Shown here: piece by piece, positions 8,244-52,716 of the stretch
Layout of the letters: each line of letters starts with the position of its first letter
How positions within the stretch are numbered: the stretch's first letter is position 1
Assembly (NCBI GenBank): GCA_030646955.1
Contig: JAUSKM010000033.1
Span: 1 to 62,614, forward strand
Reading direction: 5' to 3'
Length of the DNA stretch: 62,614 bases
From: a bacterium
Lineage (GTDB): Bacteria > Patescibacteriota > Patescibacteriia > JACPHY01
Translations under genes and position numbers: made by a program
Notes under the pieces: model-generated
Seen by the model: only the letters and a program-made list of their open reading frames with translations
Told to the model about the DNA's origin: nothing
Database searches by the model: none

Positions 8244-8247
8244 CCCT

Positions 8248-11375: not shown

Positions 11376-11382
11376 TGATCGT

Positions 11383-16351: not shown

Positions 16352-16352
16352 C

Positions 16353-17129: not shown

Positions 17130-17690
17130 TGTGTCCTCATGCTCACGCTGTCCGTCGCGGAAACCGTAGCGGTATTTTTCCGTTCTTGGTGGCCGGTAGT
17201 ATCTGCATGGTGTTTGTCTATTTACGGTCATGATGGGTGGAACGAGCATCGCACTCCCTGCAGTGAGGGGGGGCGGTCCACACGGCGGCATGAGCTCCTT
17301 GCGATGTATGGCCGGCCGCCGTACATTTTTACGGACTGGAGCGTCCGGCACGCGCAGTACATGCGTTTTTTGTTGTGTGATTCATTGGTGGGGCGCGTGA
17401 GCGGGTACTCCTGGCGGTATGATTTTTTGCACATGGTGCCAAGCAATATTGTGCGCATGCGCACTGCAGAAGGGGATCTGGAATGGGTAGGATGATGATG
17501 CATTGGATGCGGTGTAGTGTTTTATGGAGTTCGGGTGGTGGTCGCTAGGGGTTCGTTTATTGGTATGTTCATGCACAGTGACTGCAGGCGGCATTGGCGA
17601 TACACTTGATACGAAGGGCGTTCTTGGTCAGAGCGCCATGTGGATAACATTCCATCAGCATCGTGCCGATTTTGTGCGCGAGCAATATCT

Positions 17691-20705: not shown

Positions 20706-21620
20706 ATGCAACGCGCTCCCTGGTCGCTCAAGCTCCTCGTGCCGCTCCTCGTCCTCATCGGCGCGGCGGTTCATGGCGCAGTGCGCGACACGTTCCCGGC
20801 ACGGGGAACCGAGGTGCCGCGCGTCGTGGTCCTTGATGTTGGGCAGGGCGATGCGATCCTCCTGGATGGTCCAGGCGACGGCGCGGAGGTGCTCATTGAC
20901 GGCGGGCCGGATGGGGATCGCATTATTGAGAAACTCGAGGAGTACCTGGGGCGTGATCGCACGCTGGATCTCGTGGTGCTCACGCACGCGCACGCAGATC
21001 ACGTTGCGGGTCTTGTCGAGGTGCTCCGGCGGTACGATGTACGTCAGGTGATGCTCACGGGCGCGGTGCACACGACGCAGACGCACGAGCGATTCCTGGA
21101 TGGGATTGCGCGCGATTACACCGCAGTGGTTCGCGGTATTGCCGGCGAACGGTTGGCGATTGGCCCGTTCACGCTCGACGTCCTCGCGCCACTGACCGAT
21201 CTCCAGGGTGTTCGCGTGGAGAACCTCAATAGCTCCTCCATCGTGCTCATGCTCACCGCAGATGCGGCGGACGGTCCGCATCGCATATTGCTGACCGGTG
21301 ATATGGAGGAGGACATCGAGGGGGCGCTGCTCGCTGCGTCTTGTGCAGCCGCATCGGAGCTCCCGTGTCCCGCGCTCGCTGCCGAGGTGCTCAAAGTTGG
21401 CCATCACGGCTCCGAGACCTCCTCCACGGAAGCGTTTCTTCGCGTGGTCGCACCGCAGCACGCGATCGTCTCTGTCGGCGCGCGCAATGACTATGGCCAC
21501 CCGCATCGACGCGCCCTCAAGCGTCTGGAGCGCATCGGTGCCTCGATCTGGCGTACGGATCGCGATGGCGATGTCGCCATTTCTTTCGGTGAGGACTTGC
21601 GCGTGATCGGGCAACACTGA
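20706..21620 (+). CDS. MBL-fold metallo-hydrolase corresponding to the ComEC C-terminal domain, encoded as a separate protein
   Basis: An N-terminal signal/anchor is followed by VVVLDVGQGDAILL, VLTHAHADHVAG and KVGHHGSETSS, which are ComEC-type beta-lactamase-fold motifs. Confidence 0.8.
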   Translation: MQRAPWSLKLLVPLLVLIGAAVHGAVRDTFPARGTEVPRVVVLDVGQGDAILLDGPGDGAEVLIDGGPDGDRIIEKLEEYLGRDRTLDLVVLTHAHADHVAGLVEVLRRYDVRQVMLTGAVHTTQTHERFLDGIARDYTAVVRGIAGERLAIGPFTLDVLAPLTDLQGVRVENLNSSSIVLMLTADAADGPHRILLTGDMEEDIEGALLAASCAAASELPCPALAAEVLKVGHHGSETSSTEAFLRVVAPQHAIVSVGARNDYGHPHRRALKRLERIGASIWRTDRDGDVAISFGEDLRVIGQH

Positions 21621-36775: not shown

Positions 36776-36801
36776 CGGGCCGGACGGGACGGTGTTCGAA
36801 C
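36776..36801. repeat. Distal att-like direct repeat (partial copy of the tRNA-Asp 3' end)
   Basis: cgggccggacggga (36776-89) plus ttcgaac (36795-801) equals 41858..41878 except for a 5-nt insertion (cggtg). Confidence 0.65.
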
Positions 36802-37037
36802 AGGACTCCTGCAGGAAATTGCCGAATGGGCTGGAGTCGTGTGGAACGTGGAGGTGTGGGCACGGCAGGCGCAGGGATTACTCGTGGGAGTTTAGAAATC
36901 GAGCGAAAGCGGAGGCCGATACCGTTGGCGGATTCCGGAGCTTGAAATTTCAGTGTTTGATGAGTGGCGCAGAATTTTGGATTCCTCAGTTTCGGCAGAG
37001 ATCTGCAGGGTGTGATATACTTTCCACAGATAGTGTT

Positions 37038-37547
37038 ATGTCTCTCAACCAAGCAAAATACAATTCAAAGAAATTCAAAGAGCTGGTGCTTTATGTGGCC
37101 CAGCAATTTGGTGGCGAGATTAGAGGAAAGAAGCGACTGGCAAAGCTCCTCTACTTTGTTGACTTTGATTTTTTTGAGAAGTACGAGAAACCAGTGACGG
37201 GAAGCGTTTATCGTGCTCTGCCAATGGGTCCTTTTCCGGTCGAATTCCCTGAAGCTATCCGTGAACTAGAGAGTGATGGTTCGCTTTCGACACGCGCTGA
37301 CCAAGAGTGGGGTGAGGGGTACGAACCGACCGTTGTTTACCAAGCAAAACGTGAACCCGACCTCTCCGTTTTTTCGAAGGATGAGGTCGCGATGGTGGAT
37401 CGTGTCATCGGGAAGTACCGTAATCTCACCGGAACAGAGCTTGAGACGCTATCGCATTCGCAGGCCCCATTCGTCGGAACAAAGCCGGGAGAGGACATTG
37501 CCTACGAGCTCTCCTTCTACCGGGAAACCGACTTCAATGATGTTTAG
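37038..37547 (+). CDS. Panacea-domain (DUF4065, SocA-like) antitoxin candidate
   Basis: KKRLAKLLYFVDFDFFEKYEKPVTGSVYRALPMGPFP...LSHSQAPF is the DUF4065 signature. Start moved from 36792 to Met 37038. Confidence 0.8.
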   Translation: MSLNQAKYNSKKFKELVLYVAQQFGGEIRGKKRLAKLLYFVDFDFFEKYEKPVTGSVYRALPMGPFPVEFPEAIRELESDGSLSTRADQEWGEGYEPTVVYQAKREPDLSVFSKDEVAMVDRVIGKYRNLTGTELETLSHSQAPFVGTKPGEDIAYELSFYRETDFNDV

Positions 37548-38280: not shown

Positions 38281-38712
38281 ATGTCTCGTATATCAACAAG
38301 AAGATTGGTGGTGATCCTCCTGTTTTTGTCCGTTTTTGCAGGAGCTGGTTGTCAGACGACCAGCCAAGCCGAGAATGTTGCTCCTGCGCGCAGTGCCCAA
38401 GCGGTGAGCATAGAGAGGCCCGCTGTCACCACTGTCATCAACACGGCACCATCCCAGGGGGCGCTCATTGTCCCGAGGGAGATGGCTCCGACTCCGAGTT
38501 GGCAACATGATCTTCCAGACAACAGCGTTGAGGATCTTCCCGCTCCTAGGGGGAAATACAAAAACGCTGATGGTCTCAATGTCCCGCGTCCTTACGTTGC
38601 GCCATCTGCACCCGTTGGTGCTTCAGCTCGATGTCGTGATGGAACGTACAGCTTCAGCCAGAATCGCAGAGGAACGTGCTCGCATCATGGAGGTGTTGCG
38701 GAGTGGCTTTGA
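38281..38712 (+). CDS. Lipoprotein with a C-terminal DUF3761 domain
   Basis: The lipobox is LSVFAGAGC. The C-terminus CRDGTYSFSQNRRGTCSHHGGVAEW matches the DUF3761 motif. Confidence 0.75.
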   Translation: MSRISTRRLVVILLFLSVFAGAGCQTTSQAENVAPARSAQAVSIERPAVTTVINTAPSQGALIVPREMAPTPSWQHDLPDNSVEDLPAPRGKYKNADGLNVPRPYVAPSAPVGASARCRDGTYSFSQNRRGTCSHHGGVAEWL

Positions 38713-38721: not shown

Positions 38722-41505
38722 CTACCTGAATAAGTTTGCAAACCAGCGAAATAGCCGCTTCCACCATGATGGTTTTGTCTCCGAGACCGCTTCATTGGTC
38801 TCTGTGGTGGAAGCATCTTGTATTGCGTCTTGGTGAGGATCCGCCTGCTCAGGTTCGATGACGATTGATTCCTCCGGAGCACTGTTCGGTTGTTGTTGGG
38901 TCCTTACATTTTCTGTGTCCGTGACCGGTGGCAGCTCCCTAGCTGGCGGTGGTCCAACGAGGTCCCCTGACTTGTTTGTTTTGGGGATGAATAGCTCAAG
39001 CGAATCAAGTTTGTTGAGGTCGATGTCTTCAAGGACAGATACTCTCGAGTACCTGTTGTTCATCGTGTCTCCTTGAGCGAGTGGCGCGTTGTTCGTCCAC
39101 GCATTGATCGTGTTTATTGAGAGAATGTACCCGAGCGCGTTTAGTTCACCCTTGACGACCGCTGACGGGATACCGATGTATGAGCCATCGCGAAGATACG
39201 CGCCACCTCCGGAGTTGCCGTGTTCAAGTATTGTGGTGGTTTTGAGGTATGCCCCGTCAGTACCACTGAAATCGCCACTCGTATACGTGAGCTTCGTGCC
39301 GAATTTCGCAGGAAATCCGTATGCGGCGATGTCGGAACCCAGTCGCGGGTTTTTGTTGCCCCTAGCTACATCGATGCTAGACAGCGGTCTGTTTTGTGGG
39401 TTCCTGAGCTTCAACAACGCAACATCTTGGCTCGGTGAGACTCTCACAATGTCCGCAATGTGTCTCTCTCCGAAGTACGGTTCGTCGTTGAAATCATTGA
39501 TGAACCCCACAAGACATCCGAGCGTCCCCGCTACCACATGCTTGTTCGTTAGAATCGCTCCACTCGAATCGATGACCGTCCCCGAGCCCTGACTTGCTTG
39601 ACGATAATTAACTGGGCAGAGCAATTTTACGGTTGCCTTGACGATTGTATCCTGACCAGTCACTTCTCCGTTTTGTGGAGGTTGTTGTGCGGGTCGGCTC
39701 GGTGTCTCACAGTATTGCGCAGTAGTAGGAGGTGCGGTCTCTGCGCTTGGGCAGTCGAATGACTTTAAACAGTTTCGATTTTGTATCCCCGAAAGAGAGC
39801 ATTCGCTCCAACCACCGCATGTCCACACGTCCGCATTACATGCTGGCTGCGGAGGAGTGCACGCTTGCACCGTCGCGGGTGAGGGAGTCGCGATGATTTG
39901 GCAATCAAATGTTTTGGTGCATGTTCGATTTTGAATACCGCGTCCCGAACATTCGTTCCAGTCATCACAAGACCATGTATCGACAGTGCATGTCGATTGT
40001 GGAGGTGTGCAGTTTTGCGAGGTTGCCGGTGATGGAGTTTCTGCGGTAGGACAATCAAATTTTTTGACACAACTTCTTGTTTGCGTTCCGTATGATGAGC
40101 ATTGATTCCAATCGCTACATGACCAAGTGTCAGTAGAGCATGGTGGAACGTAAGTACACGATTGAGACAACAGAGGATTGCCGCCGACGCATCCTGTCGG
40201 CGATGAAGAAATGACGCTTCTTGTTTGTTGCCCTGACGGAGAACATGCCGACCAATTGGAGTATGCCCACGCAGCGCATGTCGACACCCTAGCTCCAAGT
40301 ATCGTAATTGGAAAGGAATTACTATTGTTTTGTTCAGGGATGGAGATCACCAAGGGAACTTCCTGCCTGATCCTTGTTGAATTATCTTTGACTAGACTCG
40401 GGTCAACAATCCGTATTCGAATTTTTGTATCTGTCCAGCTGATCAAAAAACCCTTTCCTTGGGACTGACCATCAATAAAGACACCTGCCCCCGGCGATGC
40501 GACAAGACCGTCACCAATAATTGTTCTATCCCCGAATCCAGTACCAATAATATCAACCTCTTGATTAAAGTATGCGGAGGCGGGATTGATTGAATTAATT
40601 TTTGGGACTGGCGGCGTACAGCTTTGCTGTAATATTGGATTGCCGCCCGCGCATCCTTCAGGCGATGAGGAAATTATTGTTCGTGATTGCTGCCCATTCA
40701 TTGAGCAAGCATCCCAGCTTGAGTACGTCCATGAGGCGCAAATCGGCGGGGTGTAGGTACAGGATTGTGATGTCGTAGGAGCGGAAACGCCACCCTCGCA
40801 ATCAGAATTTTTACCACACGTTCTCGCCTGTGTTCCTGATGGAGCACATGCGCTCCAGTTCTCGCAAGAGTAGTCGTTTGCCGTACAGGCAGTAGTGCAC
40901 GATTGGGTGAGCACCGGCTCACCGCCAGTACAGCCGTTTGGAGAGGAAGAGAGAACTGTTCTTGTTTGCTGGTTATTGGTACACGCACTCCATTCGGAGT
41001 ACGTAAGGGTAATGCAGGTAGGAGGCGGTGGAACGTAAGTGGCTAGAGTGCCGCGTGTGCAGATTCCTTGATTGTCGGACGCAGAAGCGTACTTCCTTAA
41101 AATGACGTAGGAGCCCAAAGTGCTGCCAGACCCAGGAGCAATCTCAAATTGAATTTCGTTGTCACTCCATGAAAGGAGTCCGAATGGCGTATCATTCACG
41201 CCATCTATTGATCCGCGCCCCCGATAAACCATGAGCACCCCATTATCAGTCGGAACGTAGAGCATCTCGGGGATAGAATCGTCGATGTTCCTGTCGCCAA
41301 ATCCTGTTCCCAGGATCTTCACAACGTCGCCACGAGTAGTCAGGTTCGATGGGGTGAACTCTGATCCAGCAAGGCATCCTGTTGTTTGAAAATCGGTAGC
41401 GGAGTAGGAGCTAGTTGCCGCACGAGCGGACGTAGCACTCGCGAAGAAAATCAACAGGAAGACAACGACGGGCAAGTATTTTTTGATTCTCATATTCATG
41501 TGCAT
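38722..41505 (-). CDS. Secreted trypsin-like (S1/Trypsin_2) serine protease with two IPT/TIG-like segments and seven Cys/Trp TSR-like repeats
   Basis: The signal peptide is KKYLPVVVFLLIFFASATSARA. The triad motifs are TNKHVV (His codon 39538-40), DVALLKL (Asp 39424-26) and GNSGGG (Ser 39211-13). The repeats lie at about 39700..41020. Confidence 0.8.
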   Translation of the reverse strand: MHMNMRIKKYLPVVVFLLIFFASATSARAATSSYSATDFQTTGCLAGSEFTPSNLTTRGDVVKILGTGFGDRNIDDSIPEMLYVPTDNGVLMVYRGRGSIDGVNDTPFGLLSWSDNEIQFEIAPGSGSTLGSYVILRKYASASDNQGICTRGTLATYVPPPPTCITLTYSEWSACTNNQQTRTVLSSSPNGCTGGEPVLTQSCTTACTANDYSCENWSACAPSGTQARTCGKNSDCEGGVSAPTTSQSCTYTPPICASWTYSSWDACSMNGQQSRTIISSSPEGCAGGNPILQQSCTPPVPKINSINPASAYFNQEVDIIGTGFGDRTIIGDGLVASPGAGVFIDGQSQGKGFLISWTDTKIRIRIVDPSLVKDNSTRIRQEVPLVISIPEQNNSNSFPITILGARVSTCAAWAYSNWSACSPSGQQTRSVISSSPTGCVGGNPLLSQSCTYVPPCSTDTWSCSDWNQCSSYGTQTRSCVKKFDCPTAETPSPATSQNCTPPQSTCTVDTWSCDDWNECSGRGIQNRTCTKTFDCQIIATPSPATVQACTPPQPACNADVWTCGGWSECSLSGIQNRNCLKSFDCPSAETAPPTTAQYCETPSRPAQQPPQNGEVTGQDTIVKATVKLLCPVNYRQASQGSGTVIDSSGAILTNKHVVAGTLGCLVGFINDFNDEPYFGERHIADIVRVSPSQDVALLKLRNPQNRPLSSIDVARGNKNPRLGSDIAAYGFPAKFGTKLTYTSGDFSGTDGAYLKTTTILEHGNSGGGAYLRDGSYIGIPSAVVKGELNALGYILSINTINAWTNNAPLAQGDTMNNRYSRVSVLEDIDLNKLDSLELFIPKTNKSGDLVGPPPARELPPVTDTENVRTQQQPNSAPEESIVIEPEQADPHQDAIQDASTTETNEAVSETKPSWWKRLFRWFANLFR

Positions 41506-41825
41506 TATTACAATAATTTGCTTGTTGTAGTAAGTCCTATCTGCCTTTGACCCTCAGAAAGTCAATCTAGTCGGGGAGAGCACAAAGCCCCCCGCCAGCC
41601 AGACGACCTTTCGGTCGCCCATGCCCTTTCGGGCATGACCATCCCTGGATGGCTGAACGAGGGGTTCAGTACCAGGGATGGATTTGGATTGCCATGCCGT
41701 CCTATGAGGACGGTTTAGGCACGGGTTCAATTGGTGAACAAGGAGCAATCCCGCGCTTCGGGACTACAAACCCATCGTATCAAAAAACAGCAGCAATCAA
41801 CCAATGATGCAATGCGCACACAACG

Positions 41826-41852: not shown

Positions 41853-41857
41853 CTTTG

Positions 41858-41933
41858 CGGGCCGGACGGGATTCGAACCCGCGATCTTCGCCGTGACAGG
41901 GCGACGCGTTGAACCGGGCTACGCTACCGGCCC
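41858..41933 (-). tRNA. tRNA-Asp (anticodon GTC)
   Basis: Hand-folded: acceptor GGGCCGG/CCGGCCC, discriminator G, D arm GCGT/ACGC, anticodon stem TCGCC/GGCGA, loop CT-GTC-AC, T arm GCGGG-TTCGAAT-CCCGT. CCA is not encoded. Confidence 0.9.
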
Positions 41934-42175: not shown

Positions 42176-42949
42176 CTAGGGGCAGCCGGGAATTCTGAGG
42201 TTTGGCATGCGCGCGCGCATGCTCGCGCAGGTGGGGTTGGCAGGTCCGGACGGCTGGCCGGCGTGGGCCTCCAGCCGATCGGCGAGGTCCATGTACCGCT
42301 GCTCCGTGTACGCGCGGGCCACTTGCCCGGTCTGCGCGATGTCGGACGTGTGCCCGTCCAGGCGCTCCCCGTGTTCGTTCAGGCGGGTCTCGTGCTCGTC
42401 CAGGCGTTCGTCCTGATCGTCCTCGTGCAGCGCGCTCGAGTCCGTCGTCGCCGTTGCGGGCTCCGACGGCTTTGTGACGACCATGGCCACGAGGCCGATG
42501 ATCCCGAGCATGCCGAGCAGCATCAGAAACACCGTGGCCAGAGGCCATACGAGGCCCGTTCCGCCACCTCCGCGCTGCGCGTGCGGGGCGAAGAAGGGGA
42601 TCTCGATCGTCGGCGGTCCGTCGAGCTGGGGCGGCGGGGGAGCTGCGACCACGACCGCGGTCGTGGATGCGTGGCCCGTCGCCGCACGCACATCGATGGC
42701 GCCGGATCGCTTCGGGCGCACCTGCGCGATGACGTATCCTGCCTGGGGGGTCCCCACGGCGCCCGTGTACCGGGTGACGCCGTTCGTCCCGTCATCGAAG
42801 ATCGCGTCCGATGCGTTGACCTCCATCCGGACGGGGACGTTTGGGACGGGGTTGCCCGTCGGGTCCGTCACCTGGAAGATGATCGGCTCGGACAGGACGC
42901 CCTCGACGGCGTCCACGCGGCCGTTTCCCTGCACCTTGATGGTCGTCAT
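42176..42949 (-). CDS. Ig-like (Big-type) domain protein with a central TM helix and a His/Glu/Asp-rich coiled C-terminal tail
   Basis: An AGGAGA Shine-Dalgarno lies upstream. The beta-rich N-domain reads IIFQVTDPTGNPVPNVPVRMEVN...GYVIAQVRP, the TM is LATVFLMLLGMLGIIGLVAMVV, and the tail has ERLDEHETRLNEHGERLDGH repeats. There is no signal peptide. Confidence 0.6.
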   Translation of the reverse strand: MTTIKVQGNGRVDAVEGVLSEPIIFQVTDPTGNPVPNVPVRMEVNASDAIFDDGTNGVTRYTGAVGTPQAGYVIAQVRPKRSGAIDVRAATGHASTTAVVVAAPPPPQLDGPPTIEIPFFAPHAQRGGGGTGLVWPLATVFLMLLGMLGIIGLVAMVVTKPSEPATATTDSSALHEDDQDERLDEHETRLNEHGERLDGHTSDIAQTGQVARAYTEQRYMDLADRLEAHAGQPSGPANPTCASMRARMPNLRIPGCP

Positions 42950-42968
42950 CGTTTCTCCTTTCTCCTTT

Positions 42969-43412
42969 CTAGTTGATGCGCCGGAAGACGAAGCGGGGGA
43001 ACTGCTGACAGGTGGCCTGCTGGGGAACGTAGACCACGGGAATCTCGACGACGTTTCCGCCGCCGCCCACCTGCGCCATCTGTCCCTCCACGGTGATGGT
43101 GAACCAGGTGTCCAGCATCGCCGTGCCGCCGCCCGCCCCCGCTCCGATGATGCGGGCGCGGATCTGGAACGTGCGACCCTCGGCCTGCTGGGTGGGGGTC
43201 ACGCTGCACCGCGCGAAACCCTCCTGCTGGGTGTAGACGACGCCGGGCTGCGTACCGCCCTGCCCGAGCACTGCCATGTCCTGCACCTGGCACTCGAACG
43301 TCGTCATGACGTTTGGCTGCGGCGCGCCGTTGTGCGTGACTTGCACCACCAGCTCTACCGCCCTGCCGACCGGGGTCGTGAAGCGATCCGCACTGTTGGG
43401 GGAGACCTGCAT
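42969..43412 (-). CDS. Small Ig-like (Big-type) domain protein
   Basis: AGGAGG lies 5 nt upstream of the ATG. VELVVQVTHNGAPQPNVMTTFECQV...FQIRARII is a beta-sandwich-like pattern. Confidence 0.55.
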   Translation of the reverse strand: MQVSPNSADRFTTPVGRAVELVVQVTHNGAPQPNVMTTFECQVQDMAVLGQGGTQPGVVYTQQEGFARCSVTPTQQAEGRTFQIRARIIGAGAGGGTAMLDTWFTITVEGQMAQVGGGGNVVEIPVVYVPQQATCQQFPRFVFRRIN

Positions 43413-43421
43413 GTGATCCTC

Positions 43422-43874
43422 CTAGAAGTCCGTGCTGCGCACGGGCCGGAAATCGGGTTCGGGTTCTTGGTTACGATCCGTGCTGCGCACGGGCCGGAAA
43501 CCGGGTTCGGGTTCCTGATGAGGGTTGGTGATGCTCACCGCCGGGGCGGCCGCGAGGGACGCCACGGAGGGGGGTGCGATCTCCTGCCTTTTGACGACGG
43601 TCGGCGGAGCGATCTCGTCCGTCTGATGATTGGGCGGCAATTCCGCCTCTTCCGGCGCGCGGGTGGCGAGATCGGGCTCGCCTTCTCCCTCGGGCGCCTC
43701 ATCCTCGTCGTACGGGTCGTTGGTTTCTTCCTCGGTCCCGTCGCCTTCGTCCAAGGAATCATCGTCATCCGCCGTTGCGCCGTCGGGGGGCGGTGTCACA
43801 TCGGTCTTCTCTTCTTTTCTGCCTCCGCCTCTCAAGATGTCGGCGAGGGGATCGGCATCGTCGTCTGTTGCCAT
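43422..43874 (-). CDS. Highly acidic, probably disordered protein with a C-terminal tandem repeat
   Basis: The start is MATDDDADPL, preceded by AGGAGG 6 nt upstream (track ORF start 43934 rejected). The protein is Asp/Glu/Pro-rich. The C-terminal QEPEPxFRPVRSTD occurs twice. Confidence 0.55.
   Translation of the reverse strand: MATDDDADPLADILRGGGRKEEKTDVTPPPDGATADDDDSLDEGDGTEEETNDPYDEDEAPEGEGEPDLATRAPEEAELPPNHQTDEIAPPTVVKRQEIAPPSVASLAAAPAVSITNPHQEPEPGFRPVRSTDRNQEPEPDFRPVRSTDF
43429..43517. repeat. Tandem direct repeat, 2 copies of 41 nt with a 48-nt period
   Basis: tccgtgctgcgcacgggccggaaa[t/c]cgggttcgggttc[t/c]tg occurs at 43429-69 and 43477-517. It encodes the repeated C-terminal peptide of the acidic protein. 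Confidence 0.85.
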
Positions 43875-44161
43875 GAGCAACCTCCTGTTGTGTGGTTCGG
43901 TTGGGAAAGGTCGGTCATTCCAGCTCCAGAGCATCTCACTTCCCGCGCGGACGTGAGGAGGAGTTTGTCCGATTGGGCAGCAAGACGCTCTGGAGCAAGA
44001 ATGTGCATTCGCTAATGCTCAAAAACATTATCATGGATGGCATGATTTGTCAAGTTTTTATGACGTTTTATTGGTTTACGTAAAGAAAATACTAGAAAAT
44101 TGGCCTAACGTAAATGAAAAATAGATATTGAATTCAGTTTTCTATATCCAGACAATCGTAC

Positions 44162-44249: not shown

Positions 44250-45506
44250 ATGGTTTGGCTTTTGGTGTCCGTGCTCTTGGTGCTCCTGGCGGCCGGCATC
44301 GTGGTCTACCTGGTCCTGCATCCGGGGACGTTCAGTCGGATGGGGCAGCGACGTCGAGCACGGAGGAATCTCAAGCAGATCCGGGCGCAGTTTGCGCCAA
44401 CGCAGGTGCCGGTGCGGCAATTGGTGCGCACCGGACCGCCGCGGGTGCAGCTCCACAACCTGTACGATGACCTTCATCCGCCGCGGTATCGGGGCGGAGG
44501 TGCGTCGAGCGGGATCCATCGCATCGTGGATTGGATCTTCCGCGGCTCCGTCTACGTGCTGACGACGCTCGTGGTGCTGACGGGTGCGCTCATCGTGGGG
44601 CTCGGCCTCATCTCGGCGGATCTGCCGATGGCGGTGTGGATGATGGTGTGGTCCATCCTCATCCTCATCGCAGTTGCGGTAGGTGTGCTGCTCATCCTCG
44701 GAATGCGGCTGGTGCAGTCCGGCATCGGTGATGGGTGGTGGGGAACGTTCGCGCGCCTCATTGCATCCATCGCGCTCGTCTGCATCCTTGCGCTCATCGC
44801 GCCGATCGCATGGGCGGGGATCGCCGATGCGGGTACGGGTGCGGCTGCCGCAGCAGTGGTGCTTCCACCGGCACCGGTAGGACTCTCGCCGGCAGCGGTA
44901 CAGGGGCGCACGCAGGCCATCGCAGCGGCATATGAGGGGATTCGCAACGATCCAGATACCTTCGCCATCGCGGCGGATGTATTTCGGTACCGTACGCTCG
45001 TGGACAAGTATGCGGCGGACTACGACCTCGATCCGCTGCGCGTGGCGGCGATGATTGCGCAGGAGTCGGCCGGCGATCCAGATGCGATGAGTTCGGCAGG
45101 TGCGTTGGGGCTCATGCAGCTCATGCCGAAGACCGCCCTGGAGTTCGGCTCGACATCGTGCGGCTTGACGCATCGCATGCTCCGGCGGCAGCCCCAGGCG
45201 AACATCTGCACCGGAACGGCATACTACCGGCACTGCACCGGGGTGTTCCGCGGAGATGGTGAGACCGCGCTTGCCGCATACAATGCCGGAGAACATCGCG
45301 TGCAATCCGCATTCGAAAAGCACGGTAATCCCACGGCAAGCTTCTGGACGCATCTCGATACCGGCGCGCTCCCGCAGGAGACCCGCGATTACGTGCCGCG
45401 GGTGCTCGCGTGGGAAATGGCACTGCGCTTCCTGGAGCGCAACCCCGATGCGCCGCTCCCGCCGCTCGCGCATGCGGCACCGGATGGCGCTCGCACGAGC
45501 GCGTGA
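44250..45506 (+). CDS. Membrane-anchored lytic transglycosylase (SLT/GH23 domain)
   Basis: GGAGG lies 4 nt upstream of ATG 44250. Several N-terminal TMs are present. The SLT motifs are AAMIAQESAGDPDAMSSAGALGLMQLMP...AAYNAGEHRV. Confidence 0.8.
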   Translation: MVWLLVSVLLVLLAAGIVVYLVLHPGTFSRMGQRRRARRNLKQIRAQFAPTQVPVRQLVRTGPPRVQLHNLYDDLHPPRYRGGGASSGIHRIVDWIFRGSVYVLTTLVVLTGALIVGLGLISADLPMAVWMMVWSILILIAVAVGVLLILGMRLVQSGIGDGWWGTFARLIASIALVCILALIAPIAWAGIADAGTGAAAAAVVLPPAPVGLSPAAVQGRTQAIAAAYEGIRNDPDTFAIAADVFRYRTLVDKYAADYDLDPLRVAAMIAQESAGDPDAMSSAGALGLMQLMPKTALEFGSTSCGLTHRMLRRQPQANICTGTAYYRHCTGVFRGDGETALAAYNAGEHRVQSAFEKHGNPTASFWTHLDTGALPQETRDYVPRVLAWEMALRFLERNPDAPLPPLAHAAPDGARTSA

Positions 45507-45512
45507 CATGAC

Positions 45513-45550
45513 AGACGCCCGAACCACTATGGTTCGGGCGTCTCCTTTTT
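45513..45550 (+). terminator. Rho-independent terminator or attenuator after the SLT gene
   Basis: A 13-bp stem agacgcccgaacc/ggttcgggcgtct with loop actat is followed by cctttttgg. Confidence 0.75.
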
Positions 45551-45585
45551 GGTACAGTGATGGTACAAGAGTTGTGCACAGTGCT

Positions 45586-45921
45586 ATGGCTGATACCCAG
45601 CAACCAGCTGATCCAGTGGGGCAGTACATCGCTACGCTTCTGGATGCGGCAAAACTTGACGCGTTACCGGACGGAGCGCGCGAGCAGATGGAAATTGCGT
45701 TGCGCGATCAGGTGCAGCGGCGCATCGGCGTGCTCGCCGTGCGGGAGCTGGACGCAGATGGTTTGGATGCAATGCGCGTGTTCCTGGAGCGTGAGACACC
45801 GCCGGAGCAAAAGGAGCTTGAGGAATTCTTCGCGTCGCGCATTCCGGATTTCGCGCAGAAGTTGGAGCGTGAGCTCGATATATTTGCGCAGGAGTTCGTG
45901 ACGGCCGCGCTCGCTGCGTAG
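45586..45921 (+). CDS. Small acidic helical protein, unknown function
   Basis: MADTQQPADPVGQYIATLLDAAKLDALPDGAREQMEIALRDQV... is the only plausible start in the 45256..45921 frame downstream of the terminator. Confidence 0.5.
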   Translation: MADTQQPADPVGQYIATLLDAAKLDALPDGAREQMEIALRDQVQRRIGVLAVRELDADGLDAMRVFLERETPPEQKELEEFFASRIPDFAQKLERELDIFAQEFVTAALAA

Positions 45922-45925
45922 TGCT

Positions 45926-46099
45926 ATGCCAGAAGATATTGAGCAGCGCCTCATCGCGCTCAAGCAGTTTGCGGATGCAGCGCTCGCCAACATCCAGCGG
46001 CTCTCGCATGAGCAGCAGGGTATCTTGCGTGACGCATTGGAGCGCGTACGGACGGAAGAAATCGAGGAGGTTCGTCGGAAGCTTTCTGATGCAGCATAA
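45926..46099 (+). CDS. 57-aa coiled-coil protein (below the ORF-track size cutoff)
   Basis: MPEDIEQRLIALKQFADAALANIQRLSHEQQGILRDALERVRTEEIEEVRRKLSDAA. The start is 4 nt after the upstream stop, and the stop is 3 nt before the giant ORF start. Confidence 0.5.
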   Translation: MPEDIEQRLIALKQFADAALANIQRLSHEQQGILRDALERVRTEEIEEVRRKLSDAA

Positions 46100-46102
46100 C
46101 GT

Positions 46103-49100
46103 ATGAGTACGGCACGCGATGAACGCAAACGGACGGAGGACGAAGCGCCAAGTGAGCGCTTGGCGGACGGCGTTGCGTTGGAGAAGCTGATCACACAGCT
46201 TCGCGATACCGTTGTCCTTGCGCAAACGCATGTTTTGAATATCCATGAGGCACGCGAACGCATCGAGCAATTGATTGACCAGCATCCGTACGTGTTGCCG
46301 GAAGAAGGGCGCACGAGGTTGGATCAAATCAAAGCAGAAGCGGAAGATGATCTACATACACTGCAGGCGCGCATGGATGAGGAGTTGCCTCTGCTGGAGG
46401 GCGCTGATCTGGAAGCGGTGACGGATGATGCTCCGGTGTCAAAGAGTTTCGCGGACGTGGAGCCGATGGGGGTTCCGCAATTTGCGTCTGGTGATGCTGC
46501 AATTCAGGAGCAGGGTGATGCGAGCGAATCGTACGGGCTTCCAAGTGCCATGAGTCGCGTGCTCATGGATGCACGTCATGCTATTGATCAGGCGCAGGAT
46601 GTGAAAACGGTGCTGGAATTGTGCGCGTCATACGAGAAAGAATTGCAGCAATTGGTGGAGCGAGAAGATCATGATTTTCCTGGGGCTGACGCGCCGCACT
46701 ACGCACAGCGAGCGGTGGAGCGTTTGGGGTTATATGCGACTGATCGTTTGACACGGTTGCATCCAGCCAATTCTCCAAAGCGTGCTGCAGATCGAGCGGC
46801 GGAGCGCGGCACAGGCGCGTTAGAGGAGCATGCTCCGTCGGCCCTTTTTACCGCGTTACTGCAAAAGATCCGCAAAGAAATAGCTGATGCGCGGGACGAT
46901 GTCAGTGGCGAACGTTTGGAGGAGCGCGTTGCTGATCTCATCTACGCGTTTCCGCGTGACCTCACCCCCACGGAAGCAGCGGAGCTCGATTTTATACAGA
47001 CACGAGCGTACAGCGGATCATCGGAACGCGGGAGGGATACGCATGATGTTGCGGGCGATGTCCCGGGAGATGTCGTGAGTATTGGCGCAGCGGAAGTGCG
47101 TGGGACGGATTTCGATTTTCCGTCGTTGGACGCGGCGGTGGCGGATACCGCGGGGCCGGAGGCGGTGCGATACGCGACGGCGGAGCAGATTGAGCACAAT
47201 CAAGAGCTTGTGGACGCCGTTTCGGTGCTCGCGGCTGTCGCGGCAGACGTTGCGGGTGGCCTGCGAGAGGGGAACGTACAAGATGCGCTTGCGCATATCG
47301 CGCGCGAGTTGAATATTCCGGCATCGGAGGTGGAGGCGGTGTTGGCGGAGCAGCATCTGCTCCTGGTGCAGGACGCACAACGCGATGTGTTGGCGGGACG
47401 TGCGCCGCAGCTGGACACAAAGACGGACAAGGCGAAGTTCGCAATGAAGACGCTCGCGAAAATCGGCGCGTATGCGGGCGCGGGCGTGCTCTTGGCATCG
47501 GCTGCGGCTTCCGGCGGCATGACCGTGGCGTTGGGCGGCGGAGCAATTGCGCTCACGCGTATGTTGGGTATTGCGCGCAGTGGGCGGAAGATTCAGGAAG
47601 AAGTGCAGGGGCGTCTGCAAGCGGTGGATGTGCTGCTGCGCACCGATGCGTACGAGCCGTCGCGTCTACGCATTGAGCAGGCGATTGCGGCGCACCTCGC
47701 GGAACGGAAGCGTAGGGCGCTTGGCATGCCGGAGGACCCACGCCGTACGCTCATCGAGGCAGACGCTACGCTCACCGAAGCAGAACGCGAGCAGACACTG
47801 CACGCATATGGTGCATTGCAGGGCGTTGACGCAGGCACCCGGGCGAAGGAGGATGCGCTGACCGATGCCATGCAAGAGGCCGCGGAGCAAGATGCTACAA
47901 CCGTAAAGAAGCTGAACGCATTTGCGCGGCTGGGGAAGACGACAGGCGACGTGCTCAAGCAGTTCTGGCGCGGCGGCGATACTACAGATGAGAAAATGCT
48001 CACCGCTGGCGTGTTTGGCATGGCTGGCGCAATCGCGTACGAAATACCGGTGGTGCGCAACGTCCTCGGCGCGTACGGCGGGGCGAAGGCAATGGAAGCG
48101 ATCCAGAAGATGCGCGGGAAGCGCGCGAGCGTTGTGGGTCGCATCGCAGGCGCAATTGCGGGTGCACTGGCTCCAGAGGCGATCCGCTACGTTGCGGGGA
48201 GTGGGATTGCGCACGGCGCGTCATCGGTTGAGCATGCAACGGCCGAGCAACCCGTCGCACCTGCGCCGGACGCGGAATCGGGCGCAGGGCATGCGCCAGC
48301 GGTTCATGATACAGAACCTTCTGCTAAGGATATTGCGGAGCTTGATGCAATTGCGTATCGGCGGTTGGCGATCGTGCACGCGGAACAGCCCGGGGATGGG
48401 TGGACGCACGTCCGAGCGCGAGAGATTTACGCCCAGGAGCATCCGGAAATGCGCGCGCATGAGGTGGTCGCGAAGATGGAAGATCACAAGCAGATGATCG
48501 CGGAGCTGCGCCGCGCGCATGGCGAGGCGTATGCGGCGGATCCCAAGAATTGGGATTCCGAGCGTGCGTTTGATCTTGATGCCATTCTCCAGGCAAAGCG
48601 CGATGCGGTTGAGGCGGGGAATCTTACTACTGATTGGAAGCCGGAAGGAGCGGGGGATGGCGAGGAGTATGTCACACGCCATACACCGGATGCCCTGCGT
48701 CTGCAGGGCGAGCAATTCATGCCGATGCTTGAGGCCATGCGCCAAGGAGCGGGGCCGTTGCAGGCATTTATTGATAACGACTATCAACAATTCACGGATT
48801 ATCCGGACACGCGGAGCTACGGTGTTGCACTGGTAGCTGCCGAGCAGCGCCTGACAGCGCTCGAGCGCACGATCGAATCGCTCCCCGCGGGTGAGTCCCG
48901 CAACGCGCTCGCAAAAGAGCTGCGTGGCTATCGGCCGTGGATCAATCACTACGTTGGGGTTCTGCGGGGATCGGGATGGACAGACGAAGCGTTGGGTATC
49001 AATCAGCCGGAAGTCCCGCCGTTGCCGCCTGTTGAGGATATTGTTTCGTCTCCAGCGACAGCAGGAGATGTTACTCCCGTAGCGGCTGTTGTAATTGACG

Positions 49101-50245
49101 ATACTGCTGACGCGTCGGATTTGGATGAAGAGCCGGAAACGGAAGTGGAGTCGCCTGCGGAGGTGCGCGCCGACGTACCTGATCAATTTGCGGATGTGCA
49201 GCCGATAAACGACAGCTCTCCGTTTGAGGCAGTGCAGCGTCGTGCACTGCGCGTCGGTGCATATGAAACGTATCGCGAAGGTTTGCAGGACGCGAACATA
49301 CGCTTGAGTGAGGGGGAGGCGACGTTTGGGGCAAACCGCATGCTCATATATGCGCGCAATCTGGATCAGATGCTCATGGAGCAGACGCAGAACGTTCGCG
49401 TTCTATGGGAAAATCGTATAGCGGCAGGTGATTATGCACGTGTTGTGCATGGAGCGGCGCAAACTTCCCCAGACATGTACGCGCGCAATCTGGAGGAGTT
49501 CAAAACGCAATTCCCCGGTGTCTTGCGGGAGGGTCGTATCACGCAGTACGAGAATAATATTGCGCAACTGCGAACGCTCCTCGGGCAGGCACAGGAGGCG
49601 GGCAATGGGCACGTTGCAGGTGCGGAACCAGTTCAAACCGTGCCGCTGGATGCGCTTGTTGGCGGTACTGCCCCCGTTGAGCAGCAGGTGCGTCCTTCGG
49701 CATCGCCGCCAGATGATTTACCAGTTGTCATTTTGGAAGCAGACAAGCCGGTCTCTGCGGATGGGGAGTACGCCGGAGAGCAGGATGATGATGCGAACGG
49801 ATTTGACGACGTGGTTGCAGGAGACGACGCGGAATTCAAAGCGGCAGCAGCCGCCGAGACGGCAAAGCAAGCCGAGAGCGAAGTACAGACCGTCCGCGAA
49901 GTGCAGGAGCGGTGGGGTAATACTTTTACGCCAACGAAAGGCGGACAAGGTATCCTCTATCGTATGCCAGGAAGCGAAACTTCAATCACATTGGGGGATA
50001 TTCGCGCAATGGAGGATCGTTCTGTGCGCGAAGTACTCATGGACGTAGCCAAGTCCGGTATTTCCGATGGGCGAAAGCAATTTGGAAAAATGCTCTTTGA
50101 TGGACTTGCCGCAAAGCACCCGGAATGGATTTTAGGTCCACACGCGCCGACGCTTGACGAGATTATGGACGGTCTCGGAAGAACCAAGAACGCGAGACTC
50201 GTAGCGTATCTGCAAATGAATCCGCAGCTGCTGGGCAGTCCGTGA
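46103..50245 (+). CDS. Giant (1380 aa) acidic, largely helical protein with two Gly/Ala-rich membrane-like segments; unknown function
   Basis: It is the longest ORF in the window. The hydrophobic segments are IGAYAGAGVLLASAAASGGMTVALGGGAIAL and LTAGVFGMAGAIAYEIPVV...IAGAIAGALAP. No family motif was recognised. Confidence 0.7.
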   Translation: MSTARDERKRTEDEAPSERLADGVALEKLITQLRDTVVLAQTHVLNIHEARERIEQLIDQHPYVLPEEGRTRLDQIKAEAEDDLHTLQARMDEELPLLEGADLEAVTDDAPVSKSFADVEPMGVPQFASGDAAIQEQGDASESYGLPSAMSRVLMDARHAIDQAQDVKTVLELCASYEKELQQLVEREDHDFPGADAPHYAQRAVERLGLYATDRLTRLHPANSPKRAADRAAERGTGALEEHAPSALFTALLQKIRKEIADARDDVSGERLEERVADLIYAFPRDLTPTEAAELDFIQTRAYSGSSERGRDTHDVAGDVPGDVVSIGAAEVRGTDFDFPSLDAAVADTAGPEAVRYATAEQIEHNQELVDAVSVLAAVAADVAGGLREGNVQDALAHIARELNIPASEVEAVLAEQHLLLVQDAQRDVLAGRAPQLDTKTDKAKFAMKTLAKIGAYAGAGVLLASAAASGGMTVALGGGAIALTRMLGIARSGRKIQEEVQGRLQAVDVLLRTDAYEPSRLRIEQAIAAHLAERKRRALGMPEDPRRTLIEADATLTEAEREQTLHAYGALQGVDAGTRAKEDALTDAMQEAAEQDATTVKKLNAFARLGKTTGDVLKQFWRGGDTTDEKMLTAGVFGMAGAIAYEIPVVRNVLGAYGGAKAMEAIQKMRGKRASVVGRIAGAIAGALAPEAIRYVAGSGIAHGASSVEHATAEQPVAPAPDAESGAGHAPAVHDTEPSAKDIAELDAIAYRRLAIVHAEQPGDGWTHVRAREIYAQEHPEMRAHEVVAKMEDHKQMIAELRRAHGEAYAADPKNWDSERAFDLDAILQAKRDAVEAGNLTTDWKPEGAGDGEEYVTRHTPDALRLQGEQFMPMLEAMRQGAGPLQAFIDNDYQQFTDYPDTRSYGVALVAAEQRLTALERTIESLPAGESRNALAKELRGYRPWINHYVGVLRGSGWTDEALGINQPEVPPLPPVEDIVSSPATAGDVTPVAAVVIDDTADASDLDEEPETEVESPAEVRADVPDQFADVQPINDSSPFEAVQRRALRVGAYETYREGLQDANIRLSEGEATFGANRMLIYARNLDQMLMEQTQNVRVLWENRIAAGDYARVVHGAAQTSPDMYARNLEEFKTQFPGVLREGRITQYENNIAQLRTLLGQAQEAGNGHVAGAEPVQTVPLDALVGGTAPVEQQVRPSASPPDDLPVVILEADKPVSADGEYAGEQDDDANGFDDVVAGDDAEFKAAAAAETAKQAESEVQTVREVQERWGNTFTPTKGGQGILYRMPGSETSITLGDIRAMEDRSVREVLMDVAKSGISDGRKQFGKMLFDGLAAKHPEWILGPHAPTLDEIMDGLGRTKNARLVAYLQMNPQLLGSP

Positions 50246-50453: not shown

Positions 50454-50792
50454 TTACGCTTTCACTACCTTCGTAAACGTCTCGGGGTGGTTAGCGGCAA
50501 GATCGGCGAGCACTTTGCGGTCCAGCTCGACGTTGCGGCGCTTGAGGTCCGCGATGAGCTTGCTGTACGTCGTGCCGTTGAGACGCGCGGCGGCGTTGAC
50601 GCGGATGTTCCAGAGGCCGCGCATGACGCGCTTCTTCTTCTTACGATCCCGGTACGCGTGCTGGCCTGCCTTCAGGACTGCGGTGGAGGCCACCCGCATC
50701 TGCGACTTACGACCCCACATGTACCCCTTGGTTTTCTTCAGGAGCGCGCGGCGCCGTTTCACGTGCAATGTTCCTCGTTTGACTCGGGGCAT
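50454..50792 (-). CDS. rplT: 50S ribosomal protein L20
   Basis: MPRVKRGTLHVKRRRALLKKTKGYMWGRK...AYRDRKKKKR. Confidence 0.95.
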   Translation of the reverse strand: MPRVKRGTLHVKRRRALLKKTKGYMWGRKSQMRVASTAVLKAGQHAYRDRKKKKRVMRGLWNIRVNAAARLNGTTYSKLIADLKRRNVELDRKVLADLAANHPETFTKVVKA

Positions 50793-50876
50793 ATATGGGT
50801 GTCAAGAAGCATGGGACATGGAACATGGAACGAGCGCGGCTCTGCGTCTCCTGTTTCTTGTCCGTTGTTCCTTGTT

Positions 50877-51071
50877 CTATGCGTACGGCATCTGCCGTCG
50901 TGCGGTTTTGGCGAGCGTGGGATCAAAGATGACATCGCGGCGCTTATTGAGGCGGGTCTTGGCGGATTCACGCGCGTTGAAGTGATCCTGGCCGGACTTG
51001 CGCTTCAGGAGTTTGTGCTTCTTCACCGTGATGCGCTTCACGGTCGCTTTGTGGGTCTTGAGCTTGGACAT
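50877..51071 (-). CDS. rpmI: 50S ribosomal protein L35
   Basis: MSKLKTHKATVKRITVKKHKLLKRKSGQDHF. Confidence 0.9.
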   Translation of the reverse strand: MSKLKTHKATVKRITVKKHKLLKRKSGQDHFNARESAKTRLNKRRDVIFDPTLAKTARRQMPYA

Positions 51072-51097
51072 AAAAGCAATCTTCGTGCAAAAACACC

Positions 51098-51748
51098 TTA
51101 CTTCGTTTGTGGTGCATTGTCCAGTTTTGGTTCCGACTCTTTCATTTCTTCCTCTTCCTCCTCTTGCGGCGATCCAGTTCCTCCCTCTTTTCGCTTGCCG
51201 CCGATGACGAGGGAGTTGCGGCCACCTTGGATGGAGAGCGGCTGGTCAATCGTGATATCGTATTCCTTCTTCATGTCCTCCACGAACGCCATGATGACCT
51301 CGCGTACCTGTGCGTGGAACCGGCGCTCGCGGCCGCGCAGGATGATGTCCACCGATACCTTGTTCCCTTGATCAAAGAAGCGTTTCGCCTGCTTCATGCG
51401 CGCTTGGCGATCATGCTCCCCAATGCGCAGCGAGAGACGAACGCCCTTCACCTCCACACGCTTCGCGTTCGCTTTTTGTGCCTTGCGCTGCTTCTCCTGC
51501 TCGTATCGGAATTGCTTGAAATCCAGGAAGCGACACACGGGCGGCTGCGCGCTTGGGTTTACCTCCACCAGATCGAACCCGCGCTCCTTTGCGGTGGCAA
51601 GCGCCTGCTCTATGGTGAGTACGCCCATGTTGCTGCCCTCCTCATCCACCACCCGTACTTCAGGCACGCGAATCCGATCGTTCGCCCGGAATGTCTGGCG
51701 CTCGATCAGTTCCTGTCGTTGAAAACGTCGGTGGCGGTGAATGCGCAC
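51098..51748 (-). CDS. infC: Translation initiation factor IF-3, with an acidic C-terminal extension
   Basis: NDRIRVPEVRVVDEEGSNMGVLTIEQALATAKERGFDLVEVNP...KEIRLSLRIGEHD-like core. The start is uncertain (GTG 51748 or ATT 51742). Confidence 0.9.
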   Translation of the reverse strand: MRIHRHRRFQRQELIERQTFRANDRIRVPEVRVVDEEGSNMGVLTIEQALATAKERGFDLVEVNPSAQPPVCRFLDFKQFRYEQEKQRKAQKANAKRVEVKGVRLSLRIGEHDRQARMKQAKRFFDQGNKVSVDIILRGRERRFHAQVREVIMAFVEDMKKEYDITIDQPLSIQGGRNSLVIGGKRKEGGTGSPQEEEEEEMKESEPKLDNAPQTK

Positions 51749-51765
51749 AGTGTAATTGCCAATTA

Positions 51766-52164
51766 TGGAGGTGGGGGGAGTTGAACCCCCGTGTGGTGCA
51801 TGCGTTGACCAATTCCTTCTCCAGGCACAGTCCTGTTCATGATGTCTCGCGTGCGCTTAAACAGGACAAAACGCGCACGTGATGAGCCCCGATGTCATCT
51901 CGATCCGCCGACGAGGCGCACAGCAGATCCAGCTCGATGATATTGCACCCGAGGTGTGCCTATCGAGCATGGGCACATCGGATGGGCAGTGCGGTTAGGC
52001 GACTGCCGAAGCGAGCGTCGGCATACGGAACGCATTGCGAACCGCATCCTTCACCCGGCTGAAAGCGTTGACACTTGCTTTCTTGTTCGCGGGATTTACG
52101 AGGCAGCGAACAACCCTCGGCCTGCTGGATTTGGAACGAATACCCATCGAATCCCGTCACCCCC
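51766..52164 (-). ncRNA. ssrA: tmRNA (SsrA)
   Basis: The 5' end GGGGGTGACGGGATTCGA pairs with the 3' end CACCTCC-A, giving a G3:U70 wobble. The T arm is GGGGG-TTCAACT-CCCCC. An internal open frame ends in ...LASAVA-TAA. It lies immediately downstream of smpB. CCA is not encoded. Confidence 0.85.
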
Positions 52165-52272: not shown

Positions 52273-52716
52273 TCACGCCATCCGCGCGCGGCGCATGCGG
52301 CGTTCGTCTTCGCGGCGTTTGATGGTCTCGCGTTTCTCAAACTGCCGCTTGCCGCGGGCGAGGGCAATTTCTGCTTTGACGAGGCCGCGTTTCTCGTACA
52401 GGCGCAGGGGAATGATCGTGAGGCGGTCGGATTGCTGCTTGCCAACGAGCCGCCGGAGGTCGCGGCGGTGGAGGAGGAGGCGGCGTGTACGGGTGGGATC
52501 GTAGTCCGGAAGCGCGGCCGCTTTCGCATATCGTCCGATAAACGCGTTGGTGAGCCACGCCTCACTGCTGCGGAGGTGCACGAAACTCCCCGTGAGCTTC
52601 GCATGGCCGGTTTTTGCGGCCTTCACTTCGTGGCCAAGCAACTCAATCCCCACCTCGATGGTTTCGAGGATCTCGTAGTCGTAGTGTGCCTTCTTATTGG
52701 TGGCGAGCGTTTTCAT
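52273..52716 (-). CDS. smpB: SsrA-binding protein SmpB
   Basis: NKKAHYDYEILETIEVGIELLGHEVK...LYEKRGLVKAEIALARGK. Confidence 0.95.
   Translation of the reverse strand: MKTLATNKKAHYDYEILETIEVGIELLGHEVKAAKTGHAKLTGSFVHLRSSEAWLTNAFIGRYAKAAALPDYDPTRTRRLLLHRRDLRRLVGKQQSDRLTIIPLRLYEKRGLVKAEIALARGKRQFEKRETIKRREDERRMRRARMA

Follow-up and report, generated by a model that had tools for sequence, protein, structure and literature searches.

A conserved three-gene unit of Patescibacteria encodes two small acidic helical proteins and a giant, possibly membrane-inserting protein

Much of bacterial diversity belongs to the Patescibacteria, which live attached to other cells by means of proteins that are mostly unknown. 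Here, we describe an operon from a member of this group that lies on a DNA stretch of 62,614 nucleotides (contig JAUSKM010000033.1, positions 1–62,614, assembly GCA_030646955.1, referred to as the window), in which two small genes precede a gene for a giant protein of 1380 amino acids (aa). An initial annotation had combined these three genes with an upstream SLT-type lytic transglycosylase gene into a candidate envelope-spanning module.

The closest described gene layouts are those of VirE1–VirE2 from Agrobacterium, of class II chaperones and translocators of type III secretion systems (T3SS), and of gpG/gpGT with the tape-measure protein, where small acidic helical proteins are likewise encoded directly upstream of, and coupled to, a huge helical client. 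A further trait in common with such chaperone–client pairs is that the hydrophobic segments of the client are too weak for ordinary co-translational insertion. The likeness is an analogy of layout only. Sequence or fold similarity is absent, and the window contains no tetratricopeptide repeat fold, no frameshift signal, and no linked machine.

The transglycosylase resembles VirB1-like hydrolases of type IV secretion systems (T4SS), such as TraG of pIP501, PrgK of pCF10, and the Patescibacteria VirB1 proteins with M23 or LysM domains (PMC12102498), in that the protein of the window is membrane-anchored and that of a related locus additionally has a Peptidase_M23 domain. It differs from them in that no VirB4, VirB6, or pilin gene is present in the scanned parts of the window, and its NCBIfam matches are generic and below cut-off. 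Most VirB1 homologues outside Paceibacteria are reported to show no association with virB4 (PMC12102498). The first small protein covers the model of the Pfam family DUF5663 (PF18908) from end to end, at a score under the cut-off; no paper mentioning this family was found in the literature, and it has no known function or structure.

The three-gene unit and its conservation

The three genes of the operon are arranged as follows.

45586..45921, + strand: first gene, 111-aa acidic helical protein, DUF5663-like (isoelectric point (pI) 4.3)
45926..46099, + strand: second gene, 57-aa helical protein (pI 5.0), 4 nt past the stop codon of the 111-aa gene
46103..50245, + strand: third gene, 1380-aa giant, starting 3 nt after the stop codon of the 57-aa gene

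Order and coordinates of all five features named in the initial annotation (the transglycosylase gene, a hairpin, and these three genes) were confirmed, including the 57-aa open reading frame (ORF) and the start of the giant 3 nt behind it. The three ORFs are beyond chance because their homologues occur in the same order in other genomes. The genes of the window are spaced by 4 and 3 nt, and in the related locus L001 stop and start codons overlap, which points to coupled translation.

Twelve independent loci with both a DUF5663-like gene and a giant gene were compared; L007 duplicates L004, and the cut contigs L003, L005, and L009 were kept apart. The loci listed are the window, L001, L002, L004 (= L007), L006, L008, L010, L011, L012, L013, L014, L015, and L016. 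The DUF5663 gene adjoins a homologous giant on the same strand at all 12 loci, being located upstream in 11 and downstream in L012. A gene of 47–66 aa lies between the two at nine of the 12 loci, and seven of these nine (the window and six others) match one profile hidden Markov model (HMM). L006 and L014 lack the intervening small gene, and in L012 no such gene was identified. Thus, a unit of three genes, encoding the 111-aa protein, the 57-aa protein, and the giant, is conserved across Patescibacteria (candidate phyla radiation bacteria), and with the adjacency of DUF5663 and giant at every locus, this part of the original module claim is supported. Across the lineage, the gene order is kept over very deep divergence, and the unit encodes one of the largest proteins of these tiny genomes. 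No description of a giant–DUF5663 unit was found in the literature. The giant family is new to it, the window being one copy, and the novelty lies in the family and not in this copy; all named members are 'Patescibacteria group bacterium'.

The 111-aa protein matched DUF5663 with E 0.004 and 18.3 bits, under the gathering threshold of 23.7 bits, over model positions 3–84 of 84. It is 61% identical to its L001 counterpart (113 aa), for which the precomputed annotation gives PF18908, and homologues in L006, L012, L014, and L016 carry an unqualified PF18908 match. A DUF5663-like HMM built locally from five loci matched in 10 loci with E 1e-32 to 1e-50. By way of these annotated relatives, homology of the 111-aa protein to DUF5663 is supported despite the sub-threshold score. 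The PHROGs database gave 0 matches for this protein.

The 57-aa gene is a third conserved component that the locus adds to the unit. Its product retains the pattern L-S-x-EQQ-x-L...IExVR, and homologues occupy the same slot in L001 (55 aa), L002, L004/L007, L008, L010, and L011 (local HMM E 1e-5 to 1e-28); in L013, L015, and L016, the slot is filled by called genes of 47–65 aa. The protein had no match in Pfam, NCBIfam, or PHROGs.

L001 has the same order as the window, with an SLT-Peptidase_M23 fusion, DUF5663 (113 aa), a 55-aa gene, and a giant of 1110 aa. The window, L001, and L002 are syntenic over an extended range on both sides, and their AI-2E transporters are 71–81% identical. The more distant, low-GC locus L015, whose AI-2E transporter is 39% identical to that of the window, retains the downstream synteny rplT-rpmI-infC-smpB-AI-2E-protease but has lgt upstream and no SLT gene. 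This indicates that the chromosomal position of the unit is old and that the SLT neighbor is a later, lineage-specific one.

L012 (GCA_028716665.1, 640-kb contig, 779-18083) is the only one of the 12 loci with T4SS genes within 10 kb of the unit. Here, the giant gene comes first and the DUF5663 gene after it; radA and recG flank the pair, which immediately follows TraC-like, DUF87/VirB4-like, and two T4SS_pilin genes. A T4SS-radA-recG neighborhood is typical of the class ABY1 (PMC12102498), and this one case of direct adjacency is a further addition to the picture of the unit. L002 (CAZPCZ010000020.1) is labeled 'uncultured Gammaproteobacteria' yet has the full SLT/DUF5663/57-aa/giant order and Patescibacteria-type synteny, so that the label is probably a binning error.

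Sequence, core, and predicted topology of the giant

The giant is acidic (pI 4.7; Asp plus Glu 16.8%) and rich in Ala (15.4%), has no signal peptide, and gave no match in Pfam, NCBIfam, or PHROGs. In AlphaFold models, DSSP assigned residues 330–1380 almost entirely to helix, broken by two linkers. The description of the protein as overwhelmingly helical and acidic, with two Gly/Ala-rich stretches in the middle and no nameable motif, therefore held; the stretches were found at residues ∼450–492 and 631–705. The regions recognized are listed below (pLDDT, predicted local distance difference test; KD, Kyte–Doolittle hydropathy).

46103..46400, + strand: residues 1–99, M-x-x-A-(E/D)-D-R motif at the N-terminus and, behind it, a conserved helical hairpin, aligned over seven high-GC members
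47147..47389, + strand: residues 349–429, small helical domain with a helix-turn-helix (HTH)-like motif IARELNIPASEVEAVL, AlphaFold pLDDT 75–89
47450..47578, + strand: residues 450–492, Gly/Ala-rich hairpin (H1-H2) with Lys/Arg on both flanks, KD 19-residue maximum 1.4–1.5
47993..48217, + strand: residues 631–705, H3 and H4, Gly/Ala-rich and hydrophobic
48368..48652, + strand: residues 756–850, GDGWTH... domain, directly past a Pro/acidic linker
49340..49612, + strand: residues 1080–1170, helical bundle with disordered linkers on either side, AlphaFold pLDDT 80–90
49955..50236, + strand: residues 1285–1378, C-terminal domain in common with L003 (tblastn 27% identity over 94 aa, E 5.5e-6), pLDDT 55–65

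An HMMER search with residues 181–1380 (E ≤ 1e-3) returned 21 representatives of 978–2405 aa, all of which match one central region. This core of ∼450 aa has a fixed order. It begins with the helical HTH-like domain ending in ...TGL..E.I... and the K...Y.G.G hairpin, continues through a helical spacer with KQ.QIDG to RGGET..EK..TAGVF..AG.LARE.P.VRN.L.AY.G.KAGE, and ends with the helical segment ARAQLLD...NP.EY and a short R.AGA..GA segment. The core HMM scored the giant of the window with E 5e-86. N- and C-terminal regions could not be aligned across the family, and Pfam detected no domain in common among 22 members. None of the 22 had a C-terminal glycosyltransferase domain, which would require the C-terminus to be cytoplasmic. 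The core architecture, including the HTH-like domain, is a further addition made by this locus.

The most conserved motif of the family is H3, TAGVF..AG..A.E.P.VRN.L.AY.G.K; H4 is a short AGAxAGA segment. Residues Y457, A645, P649, and G660 are invariant in the 22 members, and Y457, G461, G472, and R486 of the hairpin region are invariant or nearly so. The ARAQLLD...NP.EY segment between H3 and H4 (∼110–130 aa) is deleted in the window and L001 and kept in all other members. Compared by BLAST with the L001 orthologue, the giant is 31% identical over residues 1–124 and 47% over residues 351–731; residues 673–844 are 41% identical to L002. The small partner is thus better conserved than the giant between the window and L001 (61% for the 111-aa protein versus 47% in the core and 31% overall). 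The conserved residues 1–99 may be a candidate docking site for the small partners.

At a single site, a family profile of the 349–429 domain weakly matched homeodomains, a TetR regulator, the sigma factors SigA and RpoD, and a designed CAP repeat protein, the last with E 5e-6 distributed over five repeats of the motif; the same site in L001 had weak HTH matches in Pfam. DNA binding by this domain is doubtful because the would-be recognition helix is acidic (SEVEAVLAEQ). One of the 22 members, P0026 (2141 aa, same family as the L011 gene 9548-15958), has an FtsK_gamma winged helix at residues 724–775 (35.6 bits versus a cut-off of 30.6), N-terminal to the core, a position that fits a cytoplasmic N-terminal part.

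Past H4, the giant of the window and other members have Pro/acidic linkers. Disordered Pro/Asp/Glu-rich linkers in the window protein span residues ∼967–1076 and ∼1170–1240. After H4, many members carry an (I/V)xxGDGxTxxxxRQL...FGxxGD domain related to the GDGWTH... domain of the window. Its assignment to LysM was rejected: among ten family segments searched against Pfam (E ≤ 10), one gave a partial match of 14 residues (E 0.013) and that of the window gave none. In L003 (Candidatus Uhrbacteria metagenome-assembled genome, JACPHY010000013.1, 1-2622), the reading frame of the giant gene shifts between ∼700 and 870, so that the N-terminal part of the core is in one frame and the sequence from the TAGVF motif onward in another, which reflects either an assembly indel or a pseudogene. 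Apart from this frameshifted copy, the giant is conserved in relatives.

Two AlphaFold models of the giant had a mean pLDDT of 51.5 and 51.9, with three confidently modeled stretches, residues 349–429 among them. Foldseek searches of the Protein Data Bank (PDB) with both models yielded nothing at E ≤ 0.001; the core remained at E > 3, and the C-terminal half found generic three-helix bundles alone (E > 0.2). Profile searches of the PDB with the core gave noise only.

Membrane association was assessed by hydropathy and charge. The classical criterion for polytopic membrane proteins used here was helices of ∼20 residues with KD ≥ ∼1.6–2. The hydrophobic segments of the giant peak at KD 1.3–1.5 (0.8–1.9 across the family), compared with 2–3 for helices of other proteins encoded in the window (AI-2E, ABC-3, YibE/F, ComEC, SLT). 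The distribution of charges obeys the positive-inside rule. The mean number of Lys plus Arg residues is 3.8 before H1, 4.6 after H2, 4.8 before H4, and 0.6 after H4 (H4: 15 residues on each side, 17 members). As Lys and Arg are enriched on both flanks of the H1-H2 hairpin and ahead of H4 but nearly absent behind H4, an in–in hairpin and an in-to-out last helix are proposed; the pattern fits an N-terminus located inside. An initially soluble protein that inserts later would account for the weak hydrophobicity just as well.

Proposed role of the unit and alternatives

The reading to which we give the highest probability, roughly 45%, is that small cytoplasmic partners escort or assemble a membrane-inserting envelope giant with a variable C-terminal half. 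It is based on the gene linkage, the tight spacing, the better conservation of the small partner, and the combination of weak hydrophobicity with the charge pattern; from these, we infer membrane insertion, topology, the role of the partners, and any envelope or host-contact function. Lacking a signal peptide, the giant would be synthesized in the cytoplasm. Its N-terminal part, which is long, acidic, and helical and includes the HTH-like domain, would remain inside the cell, and three to four Gly/Ala-rich, marginally hydrophobic segments would put the protein into the membrane. The fast-evolving C-terminal half on Pro/acidic linkers may be the lineage-specific working end and most likely faces outward. 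Acting as chaperones or as subunits for assembly, the two small acidic helical partners, translationally coupled to the giant, would bind it in the cytoplasm and hold its weakly hydrophobic segments soluble until insertion.

Several points weigh against this reading. The sequence searches revealed no homology that would assign a function to the giant family. In the AlphaFold models, which are of poor quality, the hydrophobic segments sit in low-confidence regions. These weakly hydrophobic segments could also be buried helices of a soluble protein. With 13–17 residues, H4 is too short for a standard membrane helix, which makes an outside location of the C-terminus uncertain.

An alternative considered possible but unlikely is that the giant is a substrate, or a membrane-inserting translocator, of the relaxase-less T4SS of Patescibacteria. 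DUF5663 and the 57-aa protein would then be secretion chaperones, and the hairpins would insert into the host membrane in a manner similar to VirE1–VirE2 or type III translocators. The giant/DUF5663 pair of L012, directly past T4SS genes, speaks for it and fits the neighborhood known from the class ABY1 (PMC12102498). Proteins that are held soluble before insertion elsewhere are typically marginally hydrophobic and have small acidic partners, and the giant has no signal peptide and fast-varying termini. However, T4SS genes adjoin only this one of the 12 loci; the neighbors of most copies are ribosomal and translation genes, and a range of 8–10 kb is free of T4SS genes. In the window, Pfam searches of 44 ORFs turned up no T4SS family, and the scanned parts contain neither a T4SS gene nor any other gene of a secretion machine. 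No secretion signal is known for the T4SS of Patescibacteria, and a presumed single-copy, lineage-wide gene in housekeeping synteny resembles a core component more than an effector. If the unit were T4SS cargo or an inserter into host membranes, it would address the question of what the essential T4SS of Patescibacteria transports.

Clearly less probable is an extended form of this idea, in which the unit would be T4SS cargo or a membrane-piercing translocator, the small proteins would keep glycine-zipper hairpins soluble, the giant would be exported into the host envelope, and, in an Uhrbacteria-like lineage, the adjoining SLT hydrolase (with or without M23) would open the wall. An equally small chance is left to functions other than those considered here.

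A little less probable again is the model of the initial annotation, in which the SLT protein, the small proteins, and the giant form or feed an envelope-spanning machine and the SLT protein opens the peptidoglycan. The features that bear on it are the following.

44250..45506, + strand: SLT lytic transglycosylase, family-1, 418 aa from an ATG start (an alternative TTG at 44217 gives 429 aa)
45513..45553, + strand: intrinsic terminator, with a hairpin at 45513-45543 (14-bp stem, 3-nt loop, nine G-C pairs) followed by a T-run

The C-terminal domain of the protein matched Pfam SLT (PF01464 / GH23) with E 6e-24 and 84.3 bits versus a cut-off of 21.3. The translation carries ESAGDP (the E-S motif with the catalytic Glu), GLMQLMP, and AYNAGEHRV, which mark a family-1 lytic transglycosylase. 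Four transmembrane helices precede the domain (KD 19-residue peaks 3.0, 1.65, 3.0, and 2.6). NCBIfam gave domain-level matches to Slt70, MltD, and BB0259-type transglycosylases, each under the family cut-off. Judged by its sequence, the protein is a membrane-anchored, ordinary family-1 lytic transglycosylase.

In favor of a joint machine, an SLT gene is found directly upstream in three genomes with SLT domains that are 30–45% identical, and the SLT-Peptidase_M23 fusion of L001 has the two-domain layout of wall hydrolases from monoderm T4SS and phage tails (PMC12102498). Against it, orthologues of the SLT gene are located upstream of the three-gene unit only in L001, where it is fused to Peptidase_M23, and in L002. 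The gene thus adjoins the unit at three of the 10 loci with a readable upstream side, all three high-GC (window, L001, L002), and not at the other seven, among them L015 with the same downstream synteny. Because the three genomes are syntenic on both sides, the adjacency may be inherited. The unit itself contains no ATPase, channel, or pilin gene.

In addition, the two parts are separated by transcription signals. The terminator of the window begins 7 nt past the SLT stop codon; its hairpin folds with −38 kcal/mol (z −3.6) and is followed by the T-run CCTTTTTGG. Past it, at ∼45549-45557, lies a TG-extended −10-like element, TGGTACAGT. Equivalent terminators are present in L001 (8973-9005) and L002 (4485-4511), followed by the promoter-like sequence TGGTATACT in L001 and by TTGACA-18-TATACT (11/12 matches) in L002. 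All three SLT-bearing loci therefore have a G+C-rich hairpin of 12–14 bp with a T-run after the SLT stop codon and a promoter-like element behind it. As these lie between the genes in three of three loci, the SLT gene is predicted to be transcribed apart from the 111-aa/57-aa/giant operon, in two transcription units. Of the module first proposed, the two small proteins and the giant stood, whereas membership of the SLT protein did not. Nor did an SLT-dependent envelope machine find support, as the scanned parts of the window lack secretion-machine genes and the SLT adjacency is lineage-specific, which inherited gene order alone could explain. The wall hydrolase is accordingly a lineage-specific neighbor of the unit and not a core part of it.

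Just as improbable as the SLT-dependent machine is a scaffold for nucleic acid, tethered to the membrane at its cytoplasmic face (e.g., for DNA uptake or segregation), which would make use of the HTH-like domain and have the small proteins as subunits. The HTH-like motif recurs throughout the family, in the confidently modeled domain that directly precedes the first hairpin, one member exceeds the Pfam cut-off for an FtsK_gamma winged helix, and the L012 pair is flanked by radA and recG. On the other hand, the HTH-like helix is acidic, and the matches are weak, the best of them (E 5e-6) summing five repeats of a designed motif. The strongly acidic character of the giant (pI 4.7) would be unusual for a DNA binder, and FtsK_gamma was detected in only one of 22 members.

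The idea of a domesticated phage-tail remnant, with a tape-measure-like giant, two small chaperones (as gpG/gpGT), and an adjoining tail lysin (SLT with or without M23), is very improbable and largely refuted: the layout does recall tape-measure loci (two small acidic genes, a long helical protein with Gly-rich hydrophobic segments, and a transglycosylase/M23 nearby) and the best PHROGs matches of the SLT domain are lytic tail proteins, but the giant and both small proteins had 0 PHROGs matches, no relatives of the unit were found in 2.9 million viral contigs, 50,697 phage genomes, or plasmid collections, and none of the 12 loci, with their conserved housekeeping location, has another phage gene.

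The window around the unit

The window has a G+C content of ∼60%, as a high-GC member of the Patescibacteria, and represents ordinary chromosome; its sequence occurs only in DNA runs from groundwater metagenomes. The bacterium is probably Uhrbacteria-like, as a Candidatus Uhrbacteria metagenome-assembled genome provides the closest labeled relative of the C-terminus of the giant. The unit is set among housekeeping genes (rplT-rpmI-infC, tmRNA, smpB) and not within a mobile element. The neighboring features are the following.

30338-31837: PilB-like ATPase, 14 kb from the three-gene unit
42176-43934, − strand: three genes, one with a weak Big_1 (Ig-like) match, upstream of the SLT gene
50454-50792, − strand: rplT, downstream of the giant
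50877-51071, − strand: rpmI, downstream of the giant
51098-51748, − strand: infC, downstream of the giant
51763-52164, − strand: tmRNA, downstream of the giant
52273-52716, − strand: smpB, adjoining tmRNA

Beyond smpB, still downstream of the giant, an AI-2E transporter gene is followed by a gene for a trypsin-like protease. A connection of the divergent Ig-like genes and of the PilB-like ATPase with the unit had been put forward as speculation, and nothing was found that links either to it. The large ORFs 42474-44015 (+) and 50487-51371 (+) were dismissed as antisense shadows, which are typical of high-GC DNA; the genes in both places are encoded by the minus strand. Elsewhere, the window contains polysaccharide-synthesis genes, ComEC, GroEL, pyruvate kinase, and a zinc ABC transporter. 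ComEC is apparently split into two adjoining ORFs (19139-20650 and 20706-21620), one with the Competence domain and the other with the metallo-beta-lactamase domain.

Between 36000 and 42000, the G+C content drops to 0.51–0.53, compared with 0.60–0.66 on the flanks. This stretch contains a SocA/Panacea antitoxin-like gene (36792-37547), a DUF3761 gene (38281-38712), and a gene for a 927-aa protein with TIG and trypsin-like protease domains (38722-41505). It ends at a tRNA-Asp gene and may be an acquired island. Adjoining the tRNA-Asp gene (41857-41933, − strand), with the protease gene on one side and the Ig-like genes on the other, a LOOT RNA was identified at 41602-41721 (− strand; Rfam RF03000, 78 bits versus a cut-off of 46).

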